From: an uncultured Neomegalonema sp.
Lineage (GTDB): Bacteria; Pseudomonadota; Alphaproteobacteria; Rhodobacterales; Rhodobacteraceae
DNA: 64,000 nt
Assembly (NCBI GenBank): GCA_937958625.1
Contig: CALGNO010000119.1
Coordinates: 3,223 to 67,222, forward strand
Direction: 5' to 3'
Shown here: positions 8,731 through 61,844 of the stretch, one piece after another
Position numbering within the stretch: position 1 is the first letter of the stretch
Layout: every line of letters begins with the position of its first letter
The notes under the pieces: generated by a model
Seen by the model: only the letters and a program-made list of their open reading frames with translations
What the model was told of the DNA's origin: nothing
The model's database searches: none
Translations under genes and position numbers: made by a program

Positions 8731-8794
8731 CCTTGTTCTCCCTTGGATTTTCTCGTTTTTGATACTGGGAGTTTCACAATTCCCGCCTGGTAAG

Positions 8795-10269: not shown

Positions 10270-11832
10270 GTGGAAGACTATATTGATACTGCCGAGAAAT
10301 ACATCGCCGCCGTACCTGAGATAGGCGCGATCTATGCGTCGATAATCGAAAATCCACTCGCGCTGGCCTTCTGCGTGATCATTGCAGTAGTTTTTGGCAT
10401 CGGCCTGCTGATGTTGGTCAGTACCAGAGCCTTTGGCTTGCGGCGAGGGACAAAGGCAGTCTCGATTATTCCGAGTATGCTCGCGACCCTTGGCGTCTTG
10501 GGGACATTCACAGGCATCCTGCTGGGGTTGCTTGATTTCAATGTCGATGCAATCGATGACAGTATCCCGCGTCTTCTCGGTGGGCTTACCGTTGCGTTCA
10601 GTACGTCGATCGTCGGCATGGGGGCCGCCTTAATATTCAGGGTTCTGGATGTCCTATTGCCTGGGCGGAGGCAGGCCGGAAAAGCAACTGCAGATGATCT
10701 GCGTTTTATCCTCGAGCAGATCCGAGAAGAAAATCGCATAAGTGCAGCGTCTGTAATCAATGCCATGTCGATGGATGGCGCGATCGTCAGCGCCTTGGAG
10801 GCCGGTCGCGCTCAAACCGAAAGGCAATCGGTTCTGCTTGGCGAAGGCATCGCCGATTTGCGGAAGGCGGTCTCCTCCGATGCTGACTCGAGCCTCGTCA
10901 CACAGCTTCAGAAACTGCGCAGCACCATTCAGGATGGTCAGAGCGATCTGATCCGCGAGTTTCGTGAATTTGCGCGTCATATGACCGAAAACACCAACAA
11001 GGTTTTGATCGAGGCACTTCAGAACGTCATCCGTGATTTCAACGACAAGATCACGGAGCAGTTTGGTGATAACTTCAAAGAGCTGAACCGCGCTGTTGGC
11101 GCTTTGCTCGAATGGCAGGAGAACTACAAGGATTTCGTCGAACGGACGGAAACGCGGGTCGCGGCGACTCTCGAAGCATTGGAGTCGAGCGAAAGAGCAA
11201 TCGGATCGGTAAAGGAGCATACGGCAGCCATCCCTGCGGCAATGGCGCTTTTGACCCCGCCTCTGATGACTTTGAATGAACAGTCGAGCACACTGGCATC
11301 GCATCTCGATGCCGTTGGTGGCCTGCGCGAAAAGGCCCTCGAAGCATTCCCGGTTGTCGAGGAAAATCTCAGGAAAATAACCGATGATCTTGGCAATCAC
11401 GTAACCTCGGCGGTGACCTCGACGGGCGAAGCATTGGAGAAGCAACGCGCAGCAAATGAAGATTTGTCATCGCGGTGTGCCGAGTTGTCCGCAGATTCTT
11501 CACGGTTGCAGAAGACGTTTTCTACTGAACTCGAACGTGCCCTCGGAAAAATGGCGGAGGAAACAAACGCTGCATTCGCCAGTCATTCTCAAACGATTGA
11601 GCAGACGACGGCTGAGATCCAGCGTCAGGTATCGGAAGCATGGAAAAGGACTGAAGACTCGATCAACGGTCGCATGGAAACGTTGGATAATGAAATTCAG
11701 CAGGAGTTGCAGCGAACGCTTTCCGTGATGGGCAGTAATCTGGCGTCCATCTCGGAGAAATTCGTGTCGGACTACACGCCACTCACCGAGCGGTTGCGCG
11801 ATGTCGTGCAGATTGCGTCGAGGGTATCGTGA
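10270..11832 (+). CDS. zorA: ZorA-like MotA/ExbB-family proton-channel protein with a long helical tail
   Basis: Three TM helices (LALAFCVIIAVVFGIGLLMLV; IIPSMLATLGVLGTFTGILLGLL; LLGGLTVAFSTSIVGMGAALIFRVL) in MotA/ExbB arrangement. These are followed by about 370 aa of charged helical sequence. GTG start is uncertain. Confidence 0.72.
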   Translation: MEDYIDTAEKYIAAVPEIGAIYASIIENPLALAFCVIIAVVFGIGLLMLVSTRAFGLRRGTKAVSIIPSMLATLGVLGTFTGILLGLLDFNVDAIDDSIPRLLGGLTVAFSTSIVGMGAALIFRVLDVLLPGRRQAGKATADDLRFILEQIREENRISAASVINAMSMDGAIVSALEAGRAQTERQSVLLGEGIADLRKAVSSDADSSLVTQLQKLRSTIQDGQSDLIREFREFARHMTENTNKVLIEALQNVIRDFNDKITEQFGDNFKELNRAVGALLEWQENYKDFVERTETRVAATLEALESSERAIGSVKEHTAAIPAAMALLTPPLMTLNEQSSTLASHLDAVGGLREKALEAFPVVEENLRKITDDLGNHVTSAVTSTGEALEKQRAANEDLSSRCAELSADSSRLQKTFSTELERALGKMAEETNAAFASHSQTIEQTTAEIQRQVSEAWKRTEDSINGRMETLDNEIQQELQRTLSVMGSNLASISEKFVSDYTPLTERLRDVVQIASRVS

Positions 11833-27033: not shown

Positions 27034-28152
27034 ATGTTCCGCTTCATCCACAGTTCCGACCTGCATCTCGGCAAGCCCTATGGCCAGATGCCCGAGGATA
27101 TTCGCGGCAATCTGACCGAGGCGCGGTTCGCGAAGATCGAGGCTTTGCTTGATCTTGCCGAGCGTGAGGGGGCGACGCATATCCTGTTGGCGGGGGATAC
27201 GTTCGACGCCGAGACGCCCTCGGACAAAACCCGCAGACAGGCGATCCGGGCGATGGCGCGGGACAGCGGTATCCGCTGGGTGATCATCCCCGGCAATCAT
27301 GATTCCCTGGCTGCCGATGAGCTGTGGCGCACCCTTGCGAGCGAAGCCCCGGAGAATGTGACCCTTGCGCTCGAGGCGCAGCCGATGGCGCTCGCAGATG
27401 GTGTTATGCTGTTGCCCGCGCCATGCCCTGCGCGCCGCTCTGGGCGCGACCTCGGGGCGTGGATGGACGAGGCGGCGACGCCCGAGGGAACCCTGCGAAT
27501 CGGTCTCGCCCATGGCGGGGTGCAGTCGTTCGCCGAGGACGGGTCCGCCGATACGCTGGCCCCGGATCGGGCCGCTCGGGCGGGTCTGGATTACCTCGCG
27601 CTCGGTGACTGGCATGGGCAAATGCAGGTCGAACCGCGCACGTGGTATTCGGGCACCCCCGAGGCTGACCAGTTCAAGCACGCGGGCCGCGCCGGGGCGC
27701 TGGTGGTCACGCTCACCGGGTCTGGCGCGCTGCCGCAGATACAGGCGGCGGATACGGGCGAGTATCTCTGGCAAAGCCATGATCTGTCGGTCACCCCGGG
27801 CACGGATGCCGCCGCTCAGGCTGCGGCGCTGTTACCGCCCGAGGCCGAGCGCCGTAAGGCCCTGTTGCGCTTTAATCTATCCGGGCGGATCGACCCCGCC
27901 GGGCGCGGCGCGCTCATCGCGGCACTGCAACAGTCCGCACCAGATTTTGCCTTTCTCGACTGGCGCGAGCGCGATTTGCGTGTCGAATATGACGCTGAAG
28001 ACCTCGACCAGATTGATCAGGGGGGCGTCTTGCGGGCCGCTGCCGAGACCCTGCGCGCCGAAGCCGATGACGCCGATCTTTCCGCCGCCGACCGCGCCAT
28101 CGCCCGCCGCGCGCTCAACCGCCTTTATGGCTACGCGGTCGAAGCACCATGA
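27034..28152 (+). CDS. SbcD/YhaO-like metallophosphoesterase (DNA repair exonuclease family)
   Basis: MFRFIHSSDLHLG...ILLAGDTFD...IIPGNHD...GLAHG are calcineurin-like phosphoesterase motifs I-IV. Confidence 0.8.
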   Translation: MFRFIHSSDLHLGKPYGQMPEDIRGNLTEARFAKIEALLDLAEREGATHILLAGDTFDAETPSDKTRRQAIRAMARDSGIRWVIIPGNHDSLAADELWRTLASEAPENVTLALEAQPMALADGVMLLPAPCPARRSGRDLGAWMDEAATPEGTLRIGLAHGGVQSFAEDGSADTLAPDRAARAGLDYLALGDWHGQMQVEPRTWYSGTPEADQFKHAGRAGALVVTLTGSGALPQIQAADTGEYLWQSHDLSVTPGTDAAAQAAALLPPEAERRKALLRFNLSGRIDPAGRGALIAALQQSAPDFAFLDWRERDLRVEYDAEDLDQIDQGGVLRAAAETLRAEADDADLSAADRAIARRALNRLYGYAVEAP

Positions 28153-30791
28153 GGCTGACCGCGATCCGCCTGCATAATGTGCGCAGCTTTGCGGGGCGCG
28201 GCATTGCCATCGACGCGATTGGCGAGGGCGTGAATGTGCTGGCCGAGGCCAATGAATACGGCAAATCCACGATCTTCGACGCCGTCCACGCACTCTTCTT
28301 TCAGTCCCACAAGGGCAAGGGCGGCGCGATCAAGGCGCTGCAACCCTATAGCGGTGGCTCGATCACTGTAGAGGCCGAGGTCGAGACCCCCGAGGGCCGG
28401 TTTCACCTGCGCAAACGCTGGCTCTCGAAGGCGCAGGCAACCGTGGCCGATGCCGCGACCGGGCGGCTGATTGCCCAGGCCGACGAGGCCGACCGCTGGA
28501 TCGACGCCCGGATGCGCGGCGGTGCGGCGGGACCGGCGGGCTTGCTGTGGGTGCAGCAGGGCGCGGTCGAAATGGGCAAGGGCGGCGGCAAGGCGGGCGA
28601 GGCTGAAAAAGCGGCGCGGGAGGATGTGCTGACCTCGGTATCCGGCGAGATCGAGGCCCTGACCGGCGGGCGGCGCATGGCGCAAGTCTTGGCAAAATGC
28701 AGCGCCGAACTTGATCCGCTGGTGACCGCCACGGGCAGGCAAAAAGCCGGTGGCCCTTATGCCGCAGCGCTGCAACATCGGGACGAGTTACAGGCGCGGC
28801 GCGACGAACTGGACGGTATCGTCAACGAGTTGCGCGGCCATCTGGATCAACGGGCGACCGCCCGCCGCCGCCTTGCTGACTTGCAAGAGGCGGACACCGC
28901 CGAGCATGACAGACACGCCCTCGCCGCCGCGACCAAGGCACTGATCGACGCCGAGGCGCAGGCGGAAAAACTGGAGCGCGCCGAACTCGCCGAACGGCTG
29001 GCACGGCAGGAGCAACAGGCGGCAAGCGAGGCCCTTGCCGGGTTCGAAAAGGCACTCGCCGGTATCGCGGCGCTCAAGACGCGCATCGACGGCGAAGCAG
29101 CGGTTTTTACGGAGGCCACCGAGAAACGCGACCGGGGCCGCGCCGCCCGCGATACCGCCGCCGAGGCACTAGGCGCAGCCGACGAGGCCCTGCGCCGCGC
29201 CGATGCAGCGCTCACCGCTGCCCGAAAAGCCGACCTCGCCCGCGCCGCTGCCGCCCGACTGTCCGAACGTCGCCAGACCTTGACCGGTGCCGAAACCGCC
29301 GCGCGGGAGGCGGATGAGGCGCGGGCGCAGGCGACGGCGCTCGATGTGCCCAAGGCAGACTTAACGCGCCTTGATGGTTTGACCGACGAGGTCGCCACCC
29401 TGACCGCCGAGCAGCGGGCAAGTTCGGCCTCGATCCGCATCGCCTATGCCGGGCCCGATGCGCCGCGTATCCGGCGGGATGGTGCGGTGGTGCCCGATGA
29501 TGAACCGATGGCGATCGAGGGCACAGCGCGTTTTGACATCGACGGCGTCGGGGCGCTGACCGTTTCCTCCGGTGCAGGTTCAGCGTCGGGCGCGGTGCAG
29601 CAAAACCTTGCCCGCGCAAGGCAGGGACTTGCTGATCTGCTGACGAAAATCGGCGTTCCTACACCCGATGCCGCCCGCACGCGCGCGCGGAAAGCCGATG
29701 GGCACCGCCATGCCGCCGACCTCGCCACCACCCGCCTTGAAACCCTCGCGCCGAAGGGTCTCGATGCCCTGCGGACGGAGGTTGCCGCCTTGGCGGCGCA
29801 GGCCGAGGAAATGCCGGAATCAGCGGAGCCGGTCGAGACCCTCGCCGAGCGCCATCGTCTGGCGGGCGATGCCCGCGCCCGCGCGGAAGCGCAGAGAGAT
29901 GCTGCGCAGACGGCGCTCAATACCCTTGAGCGGGGATTGGTCGAGAGCGAAACTAACCTCGCCCGCTCGCGTGAGGCGCTTCAGCGCGATGAAACCGCCG
30001 CGGGCGAGGGTGGCGACCCCGACGCGCGGCGCGCTGCGTTGACCCAGGCCAGCGCGGAGACGGCGCGGGCGTTTGACGTCGCTAAGAGTGCCGCCGATGC
30101 GTTGCGCGCGCAGACCCCCGACCTTATCACCCTGCGCGCCGCAAAGGCCCGCGCCGAAAGCGTGCTGACCCGCAGCCGCGCCGAGACAGAGAGCCTTGGC
30201 CGGACCATCAGCGAACTCGATGGCCGCATCGGCACCCGTGCCGAGCAGGGCGTCGAGGAAGAACTGGCCGAAGTCGAAGGCCGCCTTTCCCGCGCCGCTG
30301 ACCATGTCGCCGGACTGGAAACGGAAATCGCCGCGCTCCAGCGTCTCAAGACCGTGCTGACCGACGCACGGGCGCAGGCCAAGGAGCATTTTTTCGAACC
30401 GGTCATGGCCGAACTCCGCCCGCTGCTATCGCTCGTTTTCGGAGATGCCGTCGTGACGTTCGATGAGACGACCCTGCTGCCGGTTTCGGTTGAACGCGGC
30501 GGCGAGGTGGAAAAATTCGATGTGCTCAGCGGTGGGATGCGCGAGCAGATAACGATCCTGACCCGCCTCGCCTTTGCCCGCCTGCTGGCCCAGGACGGGC
30601 GCACGGTGCCGGTCATTCTCGACGATGCGCTGATCTATTCCGATGATGCGCGGATCGAGCGGATGTTCGATGCCTTGCACCGGCAGGCCACCGACCTGCA
30701 AATCCTCGTCTTCACCTGCCGCCAGCGCGCCTTCCGCGCCCTTGGCGGGCGAGAGATGCAGGTGGCGGCATGGTCGCCGGAGGATGGTTGA
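28149..30791 (+). CDS. SbcC/YhaN-like AAA/SMC-type ATPase with long coiled coil
   Basis: ATGA overlap with the phosphoesterase gene. N-terminal Walker A (LAEANEYGKSTIFDA), about 600 aa of Ala/Arg/Glu-rich coiled coil, then a C-terminal LSGGMREQ signature and VPVILDDALIYSDD Walker B. Confidence 0.8.
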   Translation: MRLTAIRLHNVRSFAGRGIAIDAIGEGVNVLAEANEYGKSTIFDAVHALFFQSHKGKGGAIKALQPYSGGSITVEAEVETPEGRFHLRKRWLSKAQATVADAATGRLIAQADEADRWIDARMRGGAAGPAGLLWVQQGAVEMGKGGGKAGEAEKAAREDVLTSVSGEIEALTGGRRMAQVLAKCSAELDPLVTATGRQKAGGPYAAALQHRDELQARRDELDGIVNELRGHLDQRATARRRLADLQEADTAEHDRHALAAATKALIDAEAQAEKLERAELAERLARQEQQAASEALAGFEKALAGIAALKTRIDGEAAVFTEATEKRDRGRAARDTAAEALGAADEALRRADAALTAARKADLARAAAARLSERRQTLTGAETAAREADEARAQATALDVPKADLTRLDGLTDEVATLTAEQRASSASIRIAYAGPDAPRIRRDGAVVPDDEPMAIEGTARFDIDGVGALTVSSGAGSASGAVQQNLARARQGLADLLTKIGVPTPDAARTRARKADGHRHAADLATTRLETLAPKGLDALRTEVAALAAQAEEMPESAEPVETLAERHRLAGDARARAEAQRDAAQTALNTLERGLVESETNLARSREALQRDETAAGEGGDPDARRAALTQASAETARAFDVAKSAADALRAQTPDLITLRAAKARAESVLTRSRAETESLGRTISELDGRIGTRAEQGVEEELAEVEGRLSRAADHVAGLETEIAALQRLKTVLTDARAQAKEHFFEPVMAELRPLLSLVFGDAVVTFDETTLLPVSVERGGEVEKFDVLSGGMREQITILTRLAFARLLAQDGRTVPVILDDALIYSDDARIERMFDALHRQATDLQILVFTCRQRAFRALGGREMQVAAWSPEDG

Positions 30792-43286: not shown

Positions 43287-45422
43287 GTGGCTATCTCAGA
43301 ATCGGCTAAAGAATTGAAGCGGGCGATCCTTCCGGGCGTCACGCAGATCAACCGCCCGTATCGTGTCAAGACGTCCCTTGCCGAAGACCACCTTGTTTTC
43401 CGGTCGATGCGGATCACCGAAACCCTCAGTATGCCGTTCGAGATGGACGTCGAGATGCTGTCCAGCGATCCGGCGATCAACTTCGATGATGTGCTCGGCC
43501 ACAATATTACCGTGGGCGCGAATCGCCCGCGCGGCGGCGAGCGGTACTTCAACGGATACGTCACCGGTTTCGGCCTGTCCGGCGTTCGTGGACGCATGTT
43601 TCTCTATCGCGCCACGGTCTCGCCGTGGCTGTGGCTGTTGCAGCAGACCGAAAACTGCATGATCTTTCACGAAATGTCGGCGATCGACATTGCCGAGGCG
43701 ATTTTCGGAGCTCACGGCTTTGCGGACTATCGCGTCGAGGGCGGTGTCAGCCCGCCGACCTATGAATATTGCGTCCAGTATCGCGAGAGTGATTTCAACC
43801 TGATTTCACGCCTCTTCGAGAAAGAGGGCATCTACTATTATTTCGAGCATGAAAACGGCAAGCACACGATGGTGATTGTCAACAGCATGGATGCTCACAA
43901 GACCGATTCGGGCTATGAAAAGCTGCCGATGGTGATCGACGACGGCACCATGCGCCGCCAGCGCGAGGGCATTTTCAGTTGGCGCAATCGCCAGCAGATC
44001 CGCGCCACGCAAGTCACGATGCAGGACTACAACTTCGTGTCGCCCCGGGCCGAGATGCTGGTGAGCGATACGATCCCTCGCAATCATGCGGCCTCGGGCC
44101 TCGAACTCTACCAGTATCCCGGCGAATACAAGGATACCGGCGCGGGCGCGGCCTATGCCAAGCTGCGGATCGAAGAACAGCAATCCGGGTTCGAGGTTGC
44201 CCAGGCCGAGACCAACGCCCACGGCATCCGCACCGGCTATCGCTTCGAACTCGAGCGCCATCCGGTCGAGAAGATGAACGACGATTACCTCGTCACCTCG
44301 TCCCATATCGAATGTTATGCGGGCAGCTATACTTCGGGGTCGAGCGACAGCGAGGCGGAGTATTCCTGTACCTTCACCGCCATGCCCATGAGCGGCACGT
44401 TCCGCCCGCCGCGACTTGCCGTCAAACCCCGCGTTCACGGCCCGCAGACCGCGGTCGTCAGCAACCGCACTCAGGGCGAAGAGATCGAGCCGGTCGACAA
44501 GCATGGCCGCGTCACGGTGCAGTTCGAATGGGAGCGCGAGGGCAAGCTGTCCTGCCCCGTGCGCGTCTCGCAGACCTGGGCCGGGGCGGGCTGGGGCGCG
44601 ATGATGATCCCGCGCCACGGGCAGGAGGTCATCGTCGAGTTCGAGGAGGGCAATCCCGACCGTCCCCTCATCACGGGCCGGGTCTATAACGGCAAGTCCG
44701 AGCCGCCCTACGATCCGATGAGCAAGCCGACCATCACGACCTTCAAGACCAACAGTTCCAAGGGCGGCGGCGGTTTCAACGAATTGCGCTTCGACGACAA
44801 GAAGGGCGATGAGAACGTCTTCATCCATGCCGAAAAGACCATGGATACGAGGGTTAAAAGCACCCGTCGGACCTATATCGGTTATGACGACCACCTGATC
44901 GTCGAGAATGACCAGTTCCTCCAGATCAAGCAAAACAAACACGAACGGATCGAGGCCGAATCGCGCCTCGAAGTGGCCGATGATTTCTCGACCAGCATTG
45001 GCGGCAGCGAACACCATGCCGTGGGCGGTGACATCGCTGCCGAAGCGGGCGGCCACGTCCACTACAAGGCCGGGCGCAAAGCCGTGATCGAGGCGGGTCA
45101 GGGCCTTACGATCAAATGCGGTGGCAACTTCATCACCCTCGACCCCTCGGGCGTTTCCATCAAGGGGACGATGGTCAAGATCAACTCCGGCGGTTCGGCG
45201 CTTTCCGGTCCCGGCGAGGCGGCCCAGCCCCCCGACGAACCCGCCATCGCCAAGAATGATCAGGCGGGCGAGATCAGTCCGGCTCCAAGGGGCCGCGACT
45301 ATAACCCCACCCAGACCGATCTGGATTCGCATCCGGTCGCCGTCGCACTGATCAATGCGGCGAAAAGCGGCAAGGTCGTCTGCAAGGTTTGTGACCAAAT
45401 GGCCAAGAGCGGATCGAAATGA
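43287..45422 (+). CDS. vgrG: T6SS spike protein VgrG (TssI)
   Basis: 711 aa with a gp27/gp5-like core (RPYRVKTSL...LVFRSMRITETLSMPFEMDVEMLS...; VRVSQTWAGAGWGAMMIPRHGQEV.VEFEEGNPDRPLITGRVYNG). GTG start with GAGAGGG upstream. Has a C-terminal tail with CKVC. Confidence 0.92.
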   Translation: MAISESAKELKRAILPGVTQINRPYRVKTSLAEDHLVFRSMRITETLSMPFEMDVEMLSSDPAINFDDVLGHNITVGANRPRGGERYFNGYVTGFGLSGVRGRMFLYRATVSPWLWLLQQTENCMIFHEMSAIDIAEAIFGAHGFADYRVEGGVSPPTYEYCVQYRESDFNLISRLFEKEGIYYYFEHENGKHTMVIVNSMDAHKTDSGYEKLPMVIDDGTMRRQREGIFSWRNRQQIRATQVTMQDYNFVSPRAEMLVSDTIPRNHAASGLELYQYPGEYKDTGAGAAYAKLRIEEQQSGFEVAQAETNAHGIRTGYRFELERHPVEKMNDDYLVTSSHIECYAGSYTSGSSDSEAEYSCTFTAMPMSGTFRPPRLAVKPRVHGPQTAVVSNRTQGEEIEPVDKHGRVTVQFEWEREGKLSCPVRVSQTWAGAGWGAMMIPRHGQEVIVEFEEGNPDRPLITGRVYNGKSEPPYDPMSKPTITTFKTNSSKGGGGFNELRFDDKKGDENVFIHAEKTMDTRVKSTRRTYIGYDDHLIVENDQFLQIKQNKHERIEAESRLEVADDFSTSIGGSEHHAVGGDIAAEAGGHVHYKAGRKAVIEAGQGLTIKCGGNFITLDPSGVSIKGTMVKINSGGSALSGPGEAAQPPDEPAIAKNDQAGEISPAPRGRDYNPTQTDLDSHPVAVALINAAKSGKVVCKVCDQMAKSGSK

Positions 45423-45946
45423 GCGCAGTGGACAAGTCTGAGATAAAGCGCGCGCTGGAGGACAGGCTGTTCGATGGCACGGGCCGGTTCGTCTATGCCG
45501 TGCTGGATGGCGCACGGAATCTCGACACGCTCTATATGCTGGAGGATTCCGACGCGCCGTTTCTTTGTGTCTATACCGGACGGCTCGACCCGGAGGTGGC
45601 GGTGACGGCCCCGTACCTCGTGGAACTGCGCGAGGAAGACGGCCTGTTCGATACCCTGTTCGACGAGGGCTGGGGCGATTCGCGGGGGATATTCCTGACC
45701 TCGGATCAGCGATTGCGCAGCGTAAGGCGGCATTTGCGCTCGCTGACCTATGCCGAGATGCCCGATGGCGAGATGGTCCTGTTCCGCTTCTATGACCCCC
45801 GCGCCCTGCGCACCTTCATGCCCGTGGCCACCGAAGAACAGCGTGCGGGCATGTTCGATACCGTGATCGACAGTTTCGTGCTGGAGAACGAGGCCGCCGA
45901 CGGGCTGGTGATCTATGAACCCGTTGCCGCCGTCGAGACGGCCTGA
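45419..45946 (+). CDS. DUF4123 domain protein (T6SS effector adaptor/chaperone family, short form)
   Basis: ATGA overlap with the vgrG stop. Motifs YAVLDGARN...APYLVEL...RHLRSL...MPDGEMVLFRFYDPRALR in DUF4123 order. Confidence 0.7.
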   Translation: MSAVDKSEIKRALEDRLFDGTGRFVYAVLDGARNLDTLYMLEDSDAPFLCVYTGRLDPEVAVTAPYLVELREEDGLFDTLFDEGWGDSRGIFLTSDQRLRSVRRHLRSLTYAEMPDGEMVLFRFYDPRALRTFMPVATEEQRAGMFDTVIDSFVLENEAADGLVIYEPVAAVETA

Positions 45947-55018: not shown

Positions 55019-55048
55019 CGTGTAGGTTTTAAATCTGTGGAGAGTGAC

Positions 55049-55810
55049 ATGAGTGACAAGAACACGGTTCGCGACAACTACGGTTGTTTCACCGGTATCG
55101 GGATGACCTATTGGCACGATCTTGCCCGGGGTTTGAAGCCGTCCCTTGTGCGGGATCGCATGGGAACCCGCATTGATTATGCCCCTGATCCGGAGGACGG
55201 GCTGGCGGCCAATAATGGCGGAATCCTCGCGCCCGAGATCGGGTATGTGGAGCGCAGAAAGCTCTACTACCGGTTCTACTCTGCCTATGCCCATAACAAG
55301 TATGCCGGGCGCGGCTGGCATGGCCATTGGTGGATCACCGAGAATGTCTTTCAAACACTGAAGGCCGAGGCGCTGGAGAACGACGAATCCTTGCGCGCCG
55401 TTGCCTCTCGCCGCCTCGCCCTGCCTCTGGTGTGGAGCGACATCCGTTATGTCGTTTGCGCGACGCCGAAAACGAATTTGAAGGTGTGGTTCGGCCCCGG
55501 CAAGGTGGCGCATCCCTCGATTTCTCCCGCCTCCGCCGCGCGCACCAAGCCTTGGGACAAGGCAGAGCCGGAAACCCACGAGGATCGGGCGAAACGCGCG
55601 AAGGACGAGGGCCTCTATGGTGATGCGCCATCAACGTCGTTGCAGCAGCTTTTTGTGCCCGGCGACATCGCGGCAGGTGTCTTCGACGACTTTTTCCACG
55701 TTGTCGGAGTCGGACGCGTGCTCGACCGCGAGGCGCTGGAGTTTGACTTCGGCGGTTCGACGAAAGACGCGAAGTGGCCGGGGGCCAAGCGCGGGGCCAC
55801 CCATGTCTGA
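55049..55810 (+). CDS. Hypothetical protein (253 aa) embedded between tssG and clpV
   Basis: ATG 55049 is preceded by GGAGAG. Host-like codon usage, no signal peptide or TM helix, and no family recognised by eye. Notable strings: GRGWHGHWWITENVF and LALPLVWSDIRYVV. Confidence 0.6.
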   Translation: MSDKNTVRDNYGCFTGIGMTYWHDLARGLKPSLVRDRMGTRIDYAPDPEDGLAANNGGILAPEIGYVERRKLYYRFYSAYAHNKYAGRGWHGHWWITENVFQTLKAEALENDESLRAVASRRLALPLVWSDIRYVVCATPKTNLKVWFGPGKVAHPSISPASAARTKPWDKAEPETHEDRAKRAKDEGLYGDAPSTSLQQLFVPGDIAAGVFDDFFHVVGVGRVLDREALEFDFGGSTKDAKWPGAKRGATHV

Positions 55811-55907: not shown

Positions 55908-58691
55908 ATGTCGTCGATGAAACGCTCCGATATTGTCGCCAAGCTGAATGCACCGTGCCGCCGGGCACTGGAAAACGCCATGAAGCTGGCGAAGCTGCGC
56001 GGTAATCCCTATGTCGAGCTGGTCCACTGGATCGAACAGATTGCGCGCACCGAAAACGCGGATTTTCAGAGAATCTGCAAACACTTCGGCGTCGACGAAT
56101 CGCATCTGATGGCGGATCTGACCGGTGCGCTCGACCGGTTGCCGCGCGGGGCGAGTTCGATCTCCGATATTTCCGACCATGTCTTCGATGCCATCGAGCG
56201 CGGCTATGCACGCGGGTCGATGAAGTTTGGCGATGACGTGGTGCGCTCGGGCTATGTGCTGGTCGCCGCGCTGCAAACGCCCCGGCTTGAGAACATGCTG
56301 GAGGGCATGTCGGCACAGTTCACCAAGATTGACCGCGACGATCTGGTCGAGGGCTTTGCCGGCATCACCAAAGGCTCGGTCGAAGACCATATCGGGGCCG
56401 TCGGTGCCTCCGCCGGTGCGCCGGGCGAGAGCAGCGGTGCGATGAAGCAAGAGGGTGGAGCCGAGGGCGGCGCGCTTGCCACCTATGCCACCGACATGAC
56501 GGCGCGGGCGAAGTCCGGCGATATGGACCCGATCGTAGGCCGCGATCCCGAAATCCGCCAGATCGTCAATATTCTCATGCGCCGTCGACAGAACAACCCG
56601 ATCCTGACCGGCGAGGCAGGCGTCGGCAAGACGGCGGTGGTCGAGGGCTTCGCCCAGCGTCTCGCGCGCGGCGACGTGCCTCCGCAGTTGAAGGATGTGT
56701 CGCTCTGGATGCTCGACATCGGCCTGCTGCAAGCGGGCGCGAGCATGAAGGGCGAGTTCGAGAACCGCCTGCGTCAGGTGATTGACGAGGTCCAAGGCTC
56801 TGAAAAACCCATCATCCTCTTCATCGACGAGGCCCACACCCTGATCGGGGCGGGCGGCGCGGCGGGCACCGGCGATGCTGCCAATCTGCTTAAGCCTGCT
56901 CTGGCGCGGGGCGAGTTGCGCACGGTCGCGGCGACGACTTGGGCGGAATACAAGAAACACATCGAGAAAGACCCGGCCCTTACCCGCCGTTTCGAGGTGG
57001 TGAAGGTCGAGGAACCCTCCGAAGAAAAAGCCCTGCTGATGATGCGGGGCATGGCTTCGGTGCTCGAAAAACATCACCGGATCCAGATTCTCGACGAGGC
57101 GCTCGAGGCGTCGGTGCAACTCTCGGCGCGCTACATCCCCGCGCGGCAGTTGCCCGATAAATCCATCTCCCTGCTCGATACCGCCTGTGCCCGCGTCGCG
57201 GTCAGTCAACACGCGGTTCCGGCGGAAGTCGAAGACCTGCGCCGCAAGATTGACGCGCTGGTGATCGAGACCGACATCGTGAAACGTGAAACAGCGGTGG
57301 GCGTCGATTCCGGCGAGCGCGGTGAAGAGATTGCTGCTGAACTGGCCGAGGCTCGCGAGGCGCTGGTCGAGGTCGAGGCGCGCTGGGAGAAAGAACAGGC
57401 GCTCGTCACCAACATCCTCGACATCCGCGCGAAACTGCGCGGCGATGCGGCCCCGGTCGAGGGCACCGGGTCTGAACTCGAAGAGGATACCGAAGCCGCA
57501 GTGGCGGAGCAGGCCGATGAGGCTGCGAGCGATGCCGCCGAGTCGAATGGTCCTGCGCCCGAAGAAACGCCGGATACCTCAGCGGGTCTCAGCGATGAAG
57601 AGCGTGCGTCCCTGCGCGAAGAACTCGATGGCGAGTTGGCCAAACTGACCGAATTGCAAGGCCAGAACCCGCTGATCCTGCCGACGGTCGACCGTCAGGC
57701 CGTTGCCGTCGTGGTCGAAGACTGGACCGGCATTCCGGTCGGGTCGATGATCTCCGACGAAATCGAGACGATCCTGAACCTGCCCTCCTTCCTGTCGAAG
57801 CGGGTGGTCGGGCAGGATCACGCGATGGAGATGATCTCCAAGCGCATCCAGACCAGCCGTGCGGGCCTCGATGCGCCGGAAAAACCCATCGGCGTCTTTA
57901 TGCTCTGCGGTCCGTCCGGTGTCGGTAAGACCGAGACCGCCCTGACATTGGCCGAGGCGCTCTATGGCGGCGAGCAGAACCTTATCACCATCAACATGAG
58001 CGAATTTCAGGAGGCGCATACCGTCTCGACCCTGAAAGGCGCGCCTCCGGGCTATGTCGGCTACGGCGAGGGCGGGGTGCTGACCGAGGCTGTGCGGCGG
58101 CGGCCCTATTCGGTCGTGCTGCTGGATGAGGTGGAAAAGGCCCACCCGGACGTGCATGAAATCTTTTTCCAGGTCTTCGACAAGGGCGTCATGGAAGATG
58201 GCGAGGGACGGCGCATCGACTTCCGCAACACGCTTATCCTGCTGACCTCGAATGTCGGCTCCGACCTGATCCTGAAGATGTGCGAAGACCCTGAACTCGC
58301 GCCTGAACCCGAGGCGATTGCCAAGGCGCTGCGGCCCGAACAGTTGGAGACTTTCCCGGCGGCGTTGCTGGGCCGTCTGGTGACGATCCCCTACTTCCCG
58401 CTGTCGGATTCGATGATCGACATGATCGCCGGATTGCAACTGCGCAAAATCCAGCGCCGGGTCCGCGACAACCACGATGCCGAGCTGACCTACGACGATG
58501 GCGTCCTCGACCTGATCCGCTCCCGCTGTACCGAACTGGCGTCGGGCGGGCGCATGATCGATACGATCCTGACCAACACCATGTTGCCCGCCATCTCCCG
58601 CGAGGTGCTGGGCCGCATGGCGGAAGGCGAGCCGCTCTCGTCGATTGCGGTCACCGTCGAAGACGGCGAATTCGCGTATCAGGTGAGTTGA
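55908..58691 (+). CDS. clpV: T6SS AAA+ ATPase ClpV (TssH)
   Basis: 927 aa. Clp N-domain and two AAA+ modules (GEAGVGKTA...LFIDEAHTL; GPSGVGKTE...[10 protein letters not shown]). Confidence 0.95.
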
Positions 58692-58695
58692 CGCT

Positions 58696-58732
58696 ATTGT
58701 ACCCTGCCGATACTCGAACGGTAGGGTACAAT
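58696..58732. terminator. 10-bp perfect inverted repeat after clpV (terminator or operator)
   Basis: ATTGTACCCT (58696-58705) and AGGGTACAAT (58723-58732) with a 17-nt loop, extendable to 13 of 15 bp. Begins 5 nt after the clpV stop. Confidence 0.35.
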
Positions 58733-58779
58733 TGTATTTCAGGTGTTGTGTGAAGTTCTCGAAAACCAATCTCGACCGG

Positions 58780-59079
58780 ATGGCTGACCAGCGTGTCGAA
58801 AGGTTCTATCTTCGCCTCGCCGAGTATCTGCGCCAGAATGTACCCGAGGCCAAACCGATGACGCAGCATGAGTTGATTGCCCATGTGCGAGAGGCTTCGC
58901 GTGTCGCGCGCGACCATGGCTTCCGCTGTGAACAGGCGCTCGCGTTCTGGTCTGAAGTCAGTCTACGCGAAGGGAGCGGTGTGTGGTTCGATTCCGCGAT
59001 ACAGCCAGCTCTGAAGGATCGCGAGGCTGCCGAAGCTGATCGCGTCACCCGCGCCATTGATGCCCTGGAGGCAGCTTGA
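58780..59079 (+). CDS. Hypothetical helical protein (99 aa), first gene of the post-clpV module
   Basis: ATG 58780 (MADQRVERFYLRLAEYL...). Its stop overlaps the next start (TGATG at 59077-59081). Confidence 0.5.
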   Translation: MADQRVERFYLRLAEYLRQNVPEAKPMTQHELIAHVREASRVARDHGFRCEQALAFWSEVSLREGSGVWFDSAIQPALKDREAAEADRVTRAIDALEAA

Positions 59080-59696
59080 TGGGCATTTTCGGTGACGCAT
59101 GGGACCGGATTACCGGTATTTTCTCGTCCGATCCGCCGGAAGAGGTGGTGGGTGCGTGCCCCGATGCCATCTCGCCAGAGGCGGCGCAGGCGTTGTTCGA
59201 TGATATGGCGGCGCAGGTCGATATCCCGTTCGATTACCCGCCCGATTGCTGCTATGCCCGCGCGCAGCGCATGGCACAGCTGATGTCTGACCGCGGCATC
59301 GCGAGTAAGAAAGCCTGGGTCTATGGCAGTCTAACCCCCGTTACCTCCAGCGGCGATCCGGTTCGGTTTCCGCCGACCCCGTCCGGCGATGTCGTGACCT
59401 GGGGCTATCACGTTGCCCCGACGGTTAGTGTTCGGCAGCCAGACGGCTCTTGCCGCGATATGGTAATCGATCCGTCCCTGCGCGATCGTCCGCTGACAAT
59501 CTCCGAATGGGAGGAAACCATGGGGGGTGGCAGCATGTCGAGGCTGACCCCGAGCGATACATATCTTTATCGCCCGGACGCCGGATATCCGCCACTGACC
59601 CAGGATGAAACCACCGACCTGCTCGGCGCGGATTCGGGGATGCGCGGTGCCTTCGCCGCGCATGTCGATACGCGCGATTCCGTTCTGGGACGATGA
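59079..59696 (+). CDS. Protein-glutaminase-like (papain/transglutaminase-fold Cys-His-Asp deamidase) protein; candidate T6SS effector
   Basis: PDCCYARAQRMAQLM...KKAWVYGSL...VVTWGYHVAPTVSV...MVIDPSL...YLYR. Order and spacing match the catalytic Cys, His and Asp segments of Chryseobacterium protein-glutaminase as I recall them (DGCYARAHKMRQIL...FVYGNL...WSYHVA...IIDPSLF). No signal peptide. Confidence 0.65.
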   Translation: MGIFGDAWDRITGIFSSDPPEEVVGACPDAISPEAAQALFDDMAAQVDIPFDYPPDCCYARAQRMAQLMSDRGIASKKAWVYGSLTPVTSSGDPVRFPPTPSGDVVTWGYHVAPTVSVRQPDGSCRDMVIDPSLRDRPLTISEWEETMGGGSMSRLTPSDTYLYRPDAGYPPLTQDETTDLLGADSGMRGAFAAHVDTRDSVLGR

Positions 59697-60265
59697 AGGC
59701 GTGGATCATTTGCGGTCTTGCTGCGATTGGCATTGCCCTGTCGGTGTTGGTTCTTGGACCGTCCACGACAATGCAGCCCAAAGAGGATAATGCGATGACG
59801 GCACAGTTGAAATACGTCAAAGATTTCACCGTCGATGAGCAAGGCGAAAGCGCCGTCGTCACCTTCGAGGATGGTCAAAGCGTCACCTTGGTCAACGGCC
59901 AGGACGGTGTCGATCTGCAACGCAAGCGCGCGTGGCTCGAAGCTGATCTGGCCCGGGGCGCGCCGGTGGCGTATTTTCCGGAGGAGAGCGGTGTCATGCC
60001 CGCTACAGTCACTTTCGGCGTTGAAATACGCGACGCCGGGCCTGACCGGGCGGGCGCAATGGCTGTTTTCGGGTTTCCGCGCCCGTCGCTTATGTATCTG
60101 ATGCCGGAGGTAGAAGGCAGGGATCGCCTCGCAAAACTGATTGAGCAGGCCGCCGAAGAGGGCTCTGCCGCAGTCTTCGCAATCAGAGGCGCCTTCGAGA
60201 TCGAAGATGTCTTGCTTATCAGCCGCGAGGCCGCCGGTGCGATGAAGGGTGTCGAAGCGCGATAG
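59693..60265 (+). CDS. Membrane-anchored or secreted hypothetical protein; candidate cognate immunity protein
   Basis: ATGA overlap with the upstream stop. N-terminal hydrophobic anchor MKAWIICGLAAIGIALSVLVLG, followed by about 165 aa of soluble domain. Confidence 0.55.
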   Translation: MKAWIICGLAAIGIALSVLVLGPSTTMQPKEDNAMTAQLKYVKDFTVDEQGESAVVTFEDGQSVTLVNGQDGVDLQRKRAWLEADLARGAPVAYFPEESGVMPATVTFGVEIRDAGPDRAGAMAVFGFPRPSLMYLMPEVEGRDRLAKLIEQAAEEGSAAVFAIRGAFEIEDVLLISREAAGAMKGVEAR

Positions 60266-60350
60266 GGGGTCGCCGGGGTCTTTCAGACCGAATGGCGCGC
60301 AATTTGCTTTACTGGGTCCATCCTTGTCTAAGATGGGACACCATACAATT

Positions 60351-60695
60351 ATGGCTGAATACCTCTTTTGCATATCGCGGCCCGACCGTGACGGTGTTGT
60401 CGAGATCATGACGTCACGCGATGACCCGCGGCTCGAATCAGCGGCGAGTATCATGCTGCGGCGCAGCCTCGGCATCCACGCTATCGAATGGACCCTGCCG
60501 GTCGTCAGTGGCGACCTGTCCATGGCAGCTTTGAAAAAATCACTGCGCGGCCATCGCCTTCGCGGCAAAAGTCTTGGTTTCCGCTGCGATCCCATGACGG
60601 CACGCGGCGAGGCGATCAAGCTCACGACCCTGCGTCCAGGCAAGGCAAAGGACCAAAAACGCAGTCTGTTCAAGCGGCTGATCCGCGCGGCATAA
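60351..60695 (+). CDS. Hypothetical protein (114 aa)
   Basis: ORF MAEYLFCISRPDRDGVVEIMTSRDDP... with a basic C-terminus. Start is uncertain (60249, 60333 or 60351). No family recognised. Confidence 0.3.
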   Translation: MAEYLFCISRPDRDGVVEIMTSRDDPRLESAASIMLRRSLGIHAIEWTLPVVSGDLSMAALKKSLRGHRLRGKSLGFRCDPMTARGEAIKLTTLRPGKAKDQKRSLFKRLIRAA

Positions 60696-60827
60696 AGGCG
60701 ACACCGGCGACAATATGACAACAGCCGTTGGAACTTTTGCCTTATTCCAGCGTCAGAGCGGTGTCTTCAAAGCGAAATGCGATCAGCGTGATTGCGTTTC
60801 TCTCCAGCCGCCAGAGGTCGTGCCGCC

Positions 60828-61844
60828 ATGTCCCGTGTTTTTTCGATTGCCACCGCCGTTATCGCGCTTCTGCCCCTGTCGGCCCTTGCCCAAGACCTTG
60901 GCGAGTCCGCGGCTCCGCGCCCGGATGAGCGGGGCACCTATACCATCGTGTCCGAGAACGATGTCTTCGTGAACACCGACCGGAACTACACCAACGGGTT
61001 TCGGGCGTCCTATCTGTCGGGCACCACAAGATCGAGCGATGGCCCCGAGGGATGGATTGCTAAGAAAATCTTCGGCGTGCCGGAAACGGCGGCGATTCGG
61101 CGCGGCATTGCCTTCGGCCATTCGATTTTCACGCCTCAGGATATTGTCGAGCCGGGGCCTCTGCCCGATCAGCATCCCTATGCCGCGTGGCTCTATGGCG
61201 AATACAGCGCCGTGATCGAGCGCAAGCATGAGGTTGATCAGGTTGTCCTGCAACTCGGCATTGTCGGCCCCTCCGCCCGGGGTGAGCGTATCCAGAACGA
61301 GGTGCACGCCCTGATCGGTTCCGACGAGGCGGCGGGCTGGGATAACCAGATCGATGACGAGCCGGGCTTCGTGCTTGCCTATGACAAGCGCCTGCGCGCG
61401 CTGGTGAAGATCGGCGATGACGATTTCGGTGCGGACCTGACGCCGAATTTCGGCGCGTCGGTGGGGAATATCCACACCAACGCCCGCGCGGGCATGACCC
61501 TGCGCATCGGCGAAAACCTACGGAATGATTTCGGCCCGCCCCGGGTGCGCCCGTCCCTCGGGGGCGCGGGATATTTCAATCCCATCGACGAATTCAGCTG
61601 GTATCTTTTTGCCGGGGTCGAGGGCAGGGCGGTGGCCCATAACATTTTTCTGGATGGCAGCCTGTTCGATGACGATTCGCCCAGCGTGAAAAAGCGCCCC
61701 TTCGTGGCGGATTTCCAAGGCGGCGCCGTGGTCCAGTATCGAAACGCCCAGCTCGCCTTTACCTATGTCGAGCGGACGGACGAGTTCGATACCCAGGAAG
61801 AGCGTCAGGCCTTTGGGGCGATCAGCTTGTCTTTGAAGTACTGA
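60828..61844 (+). CDS. LpxR family (DUF2219) outer-membrane lipid A deacylase-like protein
   Basis: Signal peptide MSRVFSIATAVIALLPLSALA, then SENDVFVNTDRNYTNGFRASY, the LpxR/DUF2219 signature (ENDxF...DxxYTNG). Confidence 0.75.
   Translation: MSRVFSIATAVIALLPLSALAQDLGESAAPRPDERGTYTIVSENDVFVNTDRNYTNGFRASYLSGTTRSSDGPEGWIAKKIFGVPETAAIRRGIAFGHSIFTPQDIVEPGPLPDQHPYAAWLYGEYSAVIERKHEVDQVVLQLGIVGPSARGERIQNEVHALIGSDEAAGWDNQIDDEPGFVLAYDKRLRALVKIGDDDFGADLTPNFGASVGNIHTNARAGMTLRIGENLRNDFGPPRVRPSLGGAGYFNPIDEFSWYLFAGVEGRAVAHNIFLDGSLFDDDSPSVKKRPFVADFQGGAVVQYRNAQLAFTYVERTDEFDTQEERQAFGAISLSLKY

Follow-up and report, generated by a model that had tools for sequence, protein, structure and literature searches.

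In a 64,000-nucleotide stretch of DNA from an uncultured Neomegalonema sp. (contig CALGNO010000119.1; hereafter the window), we analysed a module of three genes that lies directly 3' of clpV and forms the 3' end of a complete type VI secretion system (T6SS) cluster, as identified by Pfam annotation of the window proteins. A first-pass annotation, made by reading the sequence, had described three tightly coupled genes at this place, and all of the open reading frames (ORFs) and both overlaps were found to be present: the plus-strand ORFs 58780-59079, 59079-59696 and 59693-60265 are joined by a TGATG overlap at 59077-59081 and an ATGA overlap at 59693-59696. The peptides that it had quoted were recovered as well: the middle ORF encodes PDCCYARAQRMAQLM, VVTWGYHVAPTV and MVIDPSL, and the downstream ORF encodes WIICGLAAIGIALSVLVLG. 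In what follows, the product of the upstream gene is called the helper, or co-adaptor (109 amino acids, 58750-59079, plus strand), that of the middle gene the putative effector (205 amino acids, 59079-59696, plus strand) and that of the downstream gene the putative immunity protein (190 amino acids, 59693-60265, plus strand). Two details of the first-pass annotation had to be revised. The upstream gene had been given 99 codons from an ATG at 58780; it more likely starts at the GTG at 58750 and encodes 109 amino acids, as homologs of 100% and 71% identity are called at this length, the extra N-terminal residues are conserved and fit the N-terminal consensus of the family, and AGGTG lies 4 nucleotides upstream of the GTG. 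In addition, the drop in G+C content that had been pointed out amounted to 0.57-0.58 against about 0.62 in 300-nucleotide windows, which is trivial and within normal variation, and we rejected it as a sign of foreign origin.

The putative effector matched the Pfam family PF18626 (Gln_deamidase_2) with 95.5 bits (cut-off 25; E=2.7e-27), residues 36-148 covering the whole profile (positions 1-106 of 106), and it had no Pfam match besides this one. A sequence search of the PDB returned the protein-glutaminase entries 2ksv, 2zk9, 3a56 and 8Z3I at E values of 1e-10 to 1e-11. In the alignment to 2ksv_A, Cys58, the second cysteine of DCCYARA, is matched with Cys42, the segment WGYHVA with WSYHVA and VIDPSL with IIDPSL, and the three residues are in register with the triad Cys42, His83 and Asp103 of mature protein-glutaminase. 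Cys58 (codon 59250-59252), His111 in WGYHVAP (59409-59411) and Asp131 in VIDPSL (59469-59471), all encoded on the plus strand, were invariant in 28 of 28 homologs. The structure of the effector was modelled with AlphaFold2 from the 28-homolog alignment, with a predicted local distance difference test score (pLDDT) of 88.1. When this model was compared with the PDB by Foldseek, the top six matches were all protein-glutaminases (E about 5e-11 to 1.4e-10; for 2zk9, a template modelling (TM) score of 0.64 at 2.6 A), and the next ranks were transglutaminases and the N-terminal-glutamine amidase NTAQ1 at E values above 1e-3. A Tae-like amidase was also considered and was ranked low, with no Tae, NlpC/P60 or CHAP amidase found among the 50 Foldseek matches (E<=0.56). 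The likeness to protein-glutaminase that the first-pass annotation had proposed was thereby confirmed at the level of profile, sequence and structure, with the catalytic triad aligned residue by residue.

Judged by these matches and by its low score against the NCBIfam equivalog model (see below), the effector is a member of the protein-glutaminase family but no ortholog of the enzyme used in industry. It shares PF18626, the fold and the order of the triad with the protein-glutaminase of Chryseobacterium proteolyticum (EC 3.5.1.44; 2ZK9, 2KSV and the zymogen 3A56) and with Flavobacterium FBPG (8Z3I), and the sequence context of the triad, DxCYARA, W-x-YHVA and IDPSL, is common to them. It differs from protein-glutaminase in that its putative inhibitor is a separate exported protein, in a candidate loading motif at the N-terminus and in a C-terminus longer by about 55 residues, and the identity is about 27-28%. 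Given its family membership, the reaction that the effector would most likely catalyse is the deamidation of peptide-bound glutamine to glutamate.

The effector possesses neither a signal peptide nor a cis pro-region. The Chryseobacterium enzyme, as described in PMC6132073, is a Sec-secreted zymogen with a 21-residue signal peptide and a 114-residue cis pro-region, the latter being cleaved off extracellularly. The first-pass annotation had already noted the missing signal peptide of the effector, and this was borne out: the N-terminus (MGIFGDAWDRITGIFSSDPPEE) has no hydrophobic core and was modelled as an amphipathic helix, on which the call of no Sec or Tat signal is based. The helix lies in the motif GIFGDAWDRITGIFSSDPP (59082-59138, plus strand), with residues 4-13 helical in the AlphaFold2 model. 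This motif, MxW[LI]xDxWxxhxxxFS, is kept in the stand-alone homologs, and in fusion proteins a PAAR domain stands in its place; it was present in the window protein and at the homologous loci L001, L002, L010, L011 and L012. A looser version, W-[DH]-x-h-x-x-h-F-[SG]-x-x-P, was read by eye, and a strict regular expression for the motif did not separate the loci that bear a helper gene from those that lack it. This N-terminal helix may be where the helper docks, or a loading tag. A second feature concerns cysteines near the active site. Cys57 (59247-59249), just before the catalytic Cys58, was found in 25 of the 28 homologs, and an N-terminal cysteine corresponding to Cys27 (59157-59159) in 22 of the 28, none of which lacks Cys57; at the Cys57 position, a glycine is present in the Chryseobacterium enzyme. 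We speculate that Cys27 and Cys57 may form a disulfide beside the active site only in the periplasm and that this bond could gate the activity.

No Pfam or NCBIfam match was found for the downstream protein. A word-indexed homolog search recovered only two close relatives, a jackhmmer search from the window protein alone stalled at 10 loci, and the family was assembled from the genes neighbouring the effector loci (alignments A1, A4 and A7). The closest clade, comprising the window protein and those of L001, L002, L004, L007 and L010, is 26-31% identical and has an invariant P-R-P; a second clade, located downstream of the effector gene in other T6SS loci, was linked to it by hhalign (90% probability, E=1.5e-6). 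With a combined profile, an immunity-like ORF was detected on the same strand within 600 nucleotides downstream at no fewer than 47 of 87 loci; this number is a minimum, as several of the contigs break off in that interval. The effector gene is accordingly adjoined by a conserved, co-varying partner gene, to which it is coupled by the ATGA overlap in the window.

The proposal of the first-pass annotation that the downstream gene encodes a periplasm-facing immunity protein is in agreement with this tracking of the effector and also with the N-termini of the family. Those of the homologs, taken from the longest ORFs, nearly always contain a signal peptide or a lipobox (for example MILRLSLIAPVLLASC in L002, TLLALVLAC in L007 and VVGAACSVTAC in L004). 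The window protein consists of a membrane anchor and a predicted periplasmic domain: its hydrophobic segment AWIICGLAAIGIALSVLVLG (59699-59758, plus strand) is a 20-residue helix without a lipobox and is read as a signal anchor, with a mean Kyte-Doolittle value of 2.57 over 19 residues, as measured on the copy in L006, a near-identical contig from an ENA metagenome. The anchor segment is kept in the 75%-identical homolog P0032. Because the effector bears no export signal and its partner is exported, the two would not meet in the cytoplasm of the producer, and this fits immunity to a periplasm-acting toxin rather than a folding helper.

The kinship of the immunity protein with the pro-region of a zymogen is a point absent from the first-pass annotation. 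A search of a plasmid collection gave one hit, an unannotated ORF (8416-9528) on plasmid pEMPC1 of Sinorhizobium sp. BG8 (L087, NZ_CP044012.1). This single ORF encodes 370 amino acids, in which a domain resembling the immunity protein and the propeptide (residues 5-155; E=3e-30 against the family hidden Markov model, HMM) precedes a glutaminase domain (residues 202-311); the linker is very rich in tryptophan (PLIWPWWRRLLDWIWRWPIWPWWWF), no signal peptide is evident, and the record is without annotation at this place. Because the order of the domains is that of a zymogen, homology of the immunity family to the pro-region of protein-glutaminase was tested. The A7 profile, built from 28 sequences with none from Chryseobacterium, was searched against 177,635 distinct PDB sequences, and its best match was residues 30-95 of 3a56_A (E=0.0013, 21.7 bits). 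The second match was the A47Q mutant 3a54, and the next, unrelated match had E=0.31. The pro-sequence comprises 114 residues, and residue 28 of the mature enzyme is number 142 of the pro-chain, which places the matched segment inside the pro-region. When the immunity family was compared with the pro-region by hhalign, the probability was 91.8% and the E value 7.2e-7 over 64 columns; with the family HMM, the pro-region segment reached 24.4 bits, and the best of 2,000 shuffled sequences reached 6.1 bits. On the evidence of these profile comparisons, the core of the immunity protein, in the C-terminal half of its predicted periplasmic domain, is homologous to the pro-region of the Chryseobacterium zymogen.

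The alignment also singled out one loop of the immunity protein, the motif P129-R130-P131-S132 (60077-60088, plus strand), in which P131 is paired with Ala47 of the pro-region (MLT-A-QFY); P129, R130 and P131 are invariant in A1. Residue 47 is changed to glutamine in PDB entry 3a54, which is titled 'A47Q1 mutant of pro-protein-glutaminase', and in the structure of the pro-protein the loop around Ala47 reportedly covers the catalytic cysteine. By analogy, the PRPS loop is predicted to plug the active site of the effector as a glutamine-free pseudosubstrate.

To place the effector among its relatives, one genome per species was scanned; 573 loci encoding a relative were found, and the 80 best of them were annotated for neighbouring genes. 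The nearest genomic relatives came from a Paracoccaceae metagenome-assembled genome (58%) and a Yoonia species (55%). Fusions to T6SS delivery domains were observed repeatedly. PAAR fusions accounted for 3 of 30 database homologs (P0023, P0027 and P0028); at L004, the locus of one of these, VgrG, a PAAR-glutaminase fusion and an immunity homolog follow one another in that order inside a T6SS cluster; and further fusions were found to PAAR in L023 and L028 and to the PAAR-like DUF4280 in L066. Among the 80 best of the 573 loci, T6SS-flanked glutaminase genes were present at L011, L012, L014, L015, L023, L028 and L066, and these relatives span Alpha-, Gamma- and Deltaproteobacteria, Acidobacteriota and Bacteroidota. 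At L012, L014 and L015, the genes for VgrG, DUF4123, (PAAR), helper, glutaminase and immunity protein are contiguous and in this order, and in the window the effector gene likewise belongs to a T6SS cluster with vgrG and an adaptor gene. These fusions and the VgrG-DUF4123 operons in other phyla support the status of T6SS effector that had been proposed from the window alone.

The same domain was found fused to delivery domains of other systems, namely to WXG100 at four Chloroflexota loci (L036, L041, L071 and L078, including Herpetosiphon) and to eCIS_core, a domain of extracellular contractile injection systems (eCIS), in L024 (Richelia, cyanobacterial) and L032 (Acidobacteriota). At none of the WXG100 and eCIS loci did we detect a propeptide-like ORF immediately 3' of the glutaminase gene. 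Because it is fused to PAAR, DUF4280, WXG100 and eCIS_core, the glutaminase domain can be regarded as a polymorphic toxin module. The eCIS toxin EAT14 was considered as a member of the family; it is transglutaminase-like, but its mutated residues are ordered C298, D397 and H410, and we did not equate it with the effector. Distant relatives of 540-620 amino acids in Bdellovibrionota showed no T6SS link among the 80 best loci. As a separate observation, Bdellovibrionota loci L037, L054, L058, L059, L073, L074, L075 and L085 each contain a glutaminase gene of about 240-285 codons followed by a propeptide-like ORF of 95-108 codons with a signal peptide; T6SS genes are not present nearby, and the arrangement resembles an enzyme-inhibitor pair in minimal form.

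The helper gene was found upstream of the effector gene at L001, L002, L011, L012, L014, L015, L016, L019, L022 and L027. It is absent at L004, where PAAR is fused to the toxin, which suggests a function in loading. Pfam and NCBIfam gave no match for the helper, as for the other flanking gene. An exhaustive helper profile search returned 9,580 representative clusters at E<=1e-3, mostly proteins of about 250 amino acids with two tandem copies of the domain. The AlphaFold2 model of the helper is a bundle of five helices (pLDDT 82.1), and its best fold match in the PDB was 9r8g_B, Tap3, with a probability of 1.00 and a TM score of 0.65 over 104 columns at a weak E value of 0.17; the TM scores of the other Foldseek matches were 0.41 or less. 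Chain B of 9R8G was assigned to Tap3 because 290 residues, 13-302, are modelled in it. In Tap3 (307 amino acids), PMC12909789 distinguishes a DUF4123 N-lobe of the alpha/beta type (residues 1-198) from a C-lobe of five helices (residues 199-302), which is in contact with the effector.

A gene for a DUF4123 protein is present in the window at 45419-45946 on the plus strand. It encodes a short adaptor of the Tap/Tec type (175 amino acids; PF13503, 1.1e-28, residues 25-143) with a weak match to the NCBIfam Tla1 chaperone model, overlaps the stop codon of vgrG and is followed by tssA, with no effector gene adjoining it. Since the protein has only 175 residues, it would comprise the N-lobe only. 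The DUF4123 proteins of L012, L014 and L015 are of similar size, 177-184 amino acids (Pfam-confirmed for L012). Neither the DUF4123 protein of the window nor the helper profile gave a meaningful match in sequence searches of the PDB. In the homolog P0106 (459 amino acids), DUF4123 (residues 17-135, 1.7e-32) is followed in the same chain by a helper domain (residues 205-315) and a second helper copy. According to Colautti et al. (PMC11582642), the N-lobe of such adaptors binds the C-terminal helix-turn-helix of VgrG and the C-lobe binds the effector, and TecT and co-TecT are 'split DUF4123 proteins'; the DUF4123 neighbourhoods surveyed there contain Rhs, Tle, alpha/beta hydrolase, MIX and MATE proteins and no glutaminase.

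To judge from its modelled fold, the helper may be a split-off lobe of a DUF4123 adaptor, the one that binds the effector, similar to co-TecT, which sharpens the earlier suggestion that the upstream protein is a loading adaptor. The evidence for a split adaptor also bears on the carrier. The first-pass annotation had regarded the effector as small enough to be Hcp or VgrG cargo; this evidence makes VgrG the likely carrier and Hcp the less likely one. The VgrG spike protein of the window (711 amino acids, 43287-45422, plus strand; Phage_GPD 5.2e-90, Gp5_trimer_C, Phage_base_V) extends about 120 residues past the gp5 domain and, by analogy, is the probable carrier, with which the DUF4123 protein would dock. 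The module is in this respect inseparable from two genes outside the span 58780-60265, vgrG (43287-45422) and the short DUF4123 gene (45419-45946). At L012 (Geobacterales), a second gene of the helper family (11269-11628) was observed after the immunity gene and may be the start of another effector cassette.

Several known systems resemble the module in part. Tae/Tai pairs combine a small Cys-His hydrolase cargo that has no signal peptide and acts in the periplasm with an exported immunity protein encoded downstream. Unlike the effector of the window, Tae proteins have the NlpC/P60 or CHAP fold and cleave stem-peptide bonds, and their immunity proteins are unrelated to propeptides. Spi of Streptococcus pyogenes is a homolog of the SpeB propeptide, a free-standing inhibitor encoded beside an enzyme of the papain superfamily; inhibitors of this type shield the cytoplasm of the producer from a secreted protease and are not the immunity proteins of a contact-dependent weapon. 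TecA of Burkholderia cenocepacia, the RIX-deamidases of Vibrio, CNF1, Cif and PMT deamidate glutamine or asparagine with a Cys-His(-Asp) site, as the effector would, and some of them are T6SS substrates. These deamidase toxins, however, belong to other families, have eukaryotic targets and come without an immunity gene, whereas the window combines PF18626 with an exported immunity protein, and this conserved, exported partner of a PF18626 effector implies a target in the bacterial envelope. With regard to loading, TecT/co-TecT-TseT-TsiT of Pseudomonas aeruginosa and the bilobed adaptors Tap3 (9R8G), Tap6 and Tap14 are comparable to the N-lobe DUF4123 protein of the window and the small, predicted helical protein encoded just upstream of the effector. 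In the window, unlike TecT/co-TecT, the two halves lie about 13 kb apart, one by vgrG and the other with the effector-immunity pair, and the cargo is a small enzyme instead of the nuclease, Rhs or MIX toxin of the TecT/Tap systems; the comparison with co-TecT is one of published descriptions. The operon VP1388-VP1390 of Vibrio parahaemolyticus (PMC8728615) is likewise tricistronic, with a non-toxic loading partner, a periplasm-acting toxin and an immunity protein with a signal peptide, but its partner is a large secreted MIX-domain protein, and that of the window is a 109-residue bundle similar to the Tap C-lobe that would work together with DUF4123.

Taken together, the interpretation offered by the first-pass annotation was largely supported, and we consider that the three genes are probably, with a probability of about 0.7, an antibacterial T6SS cargo-effector cassette with an enzyme acting in the periplasm or envelope, loading by a split adaptor and propeptide-like immunity. 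In this scenario, the effector, a predicted Cys-His-Asp hydrolase of the papain/transglutaminase superfamily, would be made without a signal peptide or an inhibitory pro-region. The 109-residue helper would bind it in the cytoplasm, probably via the conserved N-terminal helix, and the short DUF4123 protein (45419-45946) would tether the helper-effector pair to the VgrG spike. After firing, the enzyme would hydrolyse the side-chain amides of glutamines in the periplasm or envelope of the recipient. Sister cells would be guarded by the 190-residue protein, a free-standing relative of the pro-domain anchored in the inner membrane and facing the periplasm, whose PRPS loop would block the active-site cleft. 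For such a cassette we infer the deamidase chemistry, the periplasmic target, the physical interactions, T6SS-dependent secretion, toxicity and neutralisation.

A number of observations weigh against this interpretation. The effector scored 79.1 bits against the NCBIfam equivalog model PG_glutam_Chrys, for which the cut-off is 250, and because it is so far below this cut-off, its substrate specificity may differ from that of the characterised enzyme. An unrestrained enzyme in the cytoplasm of the producer is a puzzle, hard to square with a broad-specificity protein deamidase unless the activity depends on the periplasm, and the WXG100 and eCIS_core fusions suggest that the domain can also act in a cytoplasm. 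The match of the helper to Tap3 has the weak E value given above, and helical bundles match easily; the fusion of DUF4123 to the helper domain is a single case among the 150 matches listed; and a search of the window for a PAAR gene found none. The similarity of the immunity protein to the pro-region is modest (21.7 bits), and the broadest profile was needed to make it significant: A1, a narrow profile, had no relevant match in the PDB, and A4 gave mostly spurious matches to DARPins through an 'EIxDV' motif, with 3a56 appearing only at E=1.3. Finally, several of the triplets, such as those of L001 and L002, are far from T6SS genes, with none within 10 kb.

The nature of the target is the first matter on which another explanation has to be weighed. 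The same cassette might be directed at peptidoglycan, either by deamidation of amidated stem residues (D-iso-glutamine or amidated meso-diaminopimelate) or by Tae-like cleavage of stem peptides. The exported immunity protein points to action in the periplasm, where the known Cys-His T6SS effectors are cell-wall amidases (Tae1-4), the fold of the effector lies within the papain/transglutaminase superfamily, and relatives are abundant in predatory Bdellovibrionota, which remodel the walls of their prey. These points are set against the absence of Tae, NlpC/P60 and CHAP structures from the fifty best structural matches shown, the different stereochemistry and position of the amide in D-iso-glutamine, the WXG100 and eCIS fusions, which argue for a target beyond the wall, and the characterised members of the family, which PMC6132073 and PMC9396377 describe as acting on the gamma-amide of peptide-bound L-glutamine, with no protease activity. 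Peptidoglycan is therefore less favoured than glutamine side chains, and we regard it as an unlikely target. An anti-eukaryotic effector that deamidates a host protein in the manner of TecA, CNF1 or Cif, with a downstream gene that is not an immunity gene, would agree with the known T6SS deamidase effectors, which are anti-eukaryotic (TecA and the RIX deamidases), and with the eCIS_core fusions of the glutaminase domain. A conserved, exported and co-evolving partner, however, is a hallmark of antibacterial effectors and is missing from the anti-eukaryotic RIX deamidases, and the partner in this case is homologous to the inhibitor of the same enzyme family, which leaves this explanation with very little probability.

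Two further explanations concern the relation of the pair to the T6SS and to each other. An enzyme-inhibitor pair serving protein modification or nutrition, with a deamidase that is cytoplasmic or exported in another way and an inhibitor that regulates it, could stand beside clpV by chance, as would be compatible with the homologous triplets that lie away from T6SS genes, with the glutaminase-inhibitor pairs that also occur in genomes without detectable T6SS genes nearby, and with the characterised family members, which are secreted nutritional or processing enzymes. The effector, however, is without a signal peptide and the inhibitor has one, and this allocation to different compartments of the producer fits immunity and not regulation. 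Moreover, the closest clades are tied to the T6SS by PAAR/DUF4280 fusions and VgrG-DUF4123 operons, P0106 joins a domain of the helper family to DUF4123, and orphan effector-immunity modules away from the main cluster are common in the T6SS, so that a chance neighbourhood seems quite improbable. That the downstream protein is a trans-acting pro-domain which helps the enzyme to fold and mature, and not an immunity protein, is suggested by its homology to the zymogen pro-region, by the cis-fused form in L087 and by the general observation that pro-regions of secreted hydrolases often assist folding. Here, the export signal on the downstream protein and the lack of one on the effector mean that the two would have no cytoplasmic meeting before secretion, and effector-immunity pairs typically show this order of genes, with translational coupling and co-variation; a maturation factor is thus highly improbable. 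An antibacterial cassette with propeptide-like immunity accordingly remains our preferred explanation.

The cluster to which the module belongs is arranged on both strands of the window. The minus-strand T6SS genes are pppA, tagF, tssM, tssL, tssK, fha and ppkA, and the plus-strand order is vgrG, the short ORF 45419-45946, tssA, tssB, tssC, hcp, tagJ, tssE, tssF, tssG, a 257-codon ORF, clpV and the module, which is followed on its 3' side by lpxR and an ompA-family gene. ClpV (927 amino acids, 55908-58691, plus strand; AAA_2 2.3e-55, AAA_lid_9, ClpB_D2-small) is encoded by the last core T6SS gene before the module. Most of the 58-nucleotide spacer between clpV and the module is occupied by a 14-bp inverted repeat (58696-58732, plus strand) whose arms are 93% complementary around a 9-nucleotide loop. 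The RNA fold of this stem-loop has -26.5 kcal/mol (z=-3.68), 1 of 200 shuffled sequences being equally stable, and on its 3' side follow UUGUAUUU and then AGGUG and the GUG start. The repeat may act as an attenuator, in RNA processing or stability, or as a palindrome to which a protein binds. A promoter and terminator scan of 58500-60900 gave sites that were no commoner than in shuffled sequence.

Three other ORFs in the vicinity were noted. The 257-codon ORF between tssG and clpV (55037-55810) has no significant Pfam or NCBIfam match and no adjoining small partner gene; the gap between tssG and clpV is 25 nucleotides at L015, too small for an equivalent, and about 880 nucleotides at L023. It could encode a lineage-specific T6SS accessory protein or another cargo. 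A 114-codon ORF (60351-60695) in the interval between the immunity gene and lpxR is without a family match and is also a gene call on the near-identical metagenomic contig (L006, 2216-2560). An 880-codon ORF (28149-30791) adjoins the pppA end of the T6SS cluster and has weak matches to SMC_N and AAA_23.

The classes of antibacterial T6SS effectors given in the literature consulted are nucleases, lipases, NADases, peptidases, glycoside hydrolases, deaminases and ADP-ribosyltransferases; the T6SS deamidases that have been cited belong to other families, are anti-eukaryotic and have no immunity genes. The first-pass annotation had stated that the T6SS deamidases known to it were of other families. 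This agrees with our full-text literature search, in which no paper linked PF18626 or protein-glutaminase with the T6SS; the supplements of a structural-bioinformatics effector survey contained no protein-glutaminase or PF18626 term, and PF18626 was encountered in the literature found in one passing mention, in Dot/Icm neighbourhoods. What is new in the module is the toxin family, its probable chemistry and an immunity protein that is a free-standing relative of a pro-domain, and what was known is the cargo effector with an immunity protein and the split Tap adaptor. A wider hypothesis can be put forward, to which we give slightly less than even odds: the glutaminase domain may be an unrecognised polymorphic toxin module that travels by at least three routes (in the T6SS via PAAR, via DUF4280 or via a split Tap adaptor, in type VII secretion via WXG100, and in eCIS via eCIS_core) and kills bacteria by deamidating glutamine side chains of proteins or peptides in the envelope, a chemistry so far unreported for weapons between bacteria, and its immunity proteins may be 'liberated propeptides', the zymogen having been split into two genes and its inhibitor half exported for the protection of the periplasm.

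Protein-glutaminase is an industrial food enzyme, and natural pro-domain-free variants with dedicated inhibitors may be useful. If the helper family, with its 9,580 clusters and no Pfam or NCBIfam model, represents the C-lobe of Tap proteins, it would extend the TecT/co-TecT arrangement beyond Pseudomonas, and the helper gene, once recognised as a Tap lobe, could serve as a marker for new cargo effectors. The kinship between immunity protein and propeptide provides a route by which immunity may have arisen, the splitting of a zymogen and the export of its inhibitor, together with a concrete structural mechanism. If the effector is a glutamine deamidase that acts in the periplasm, it would represent a new chemistry for antagonism between bacteria and would point to a target in the envelope that is harmed by a change from glutamine to glutamate.

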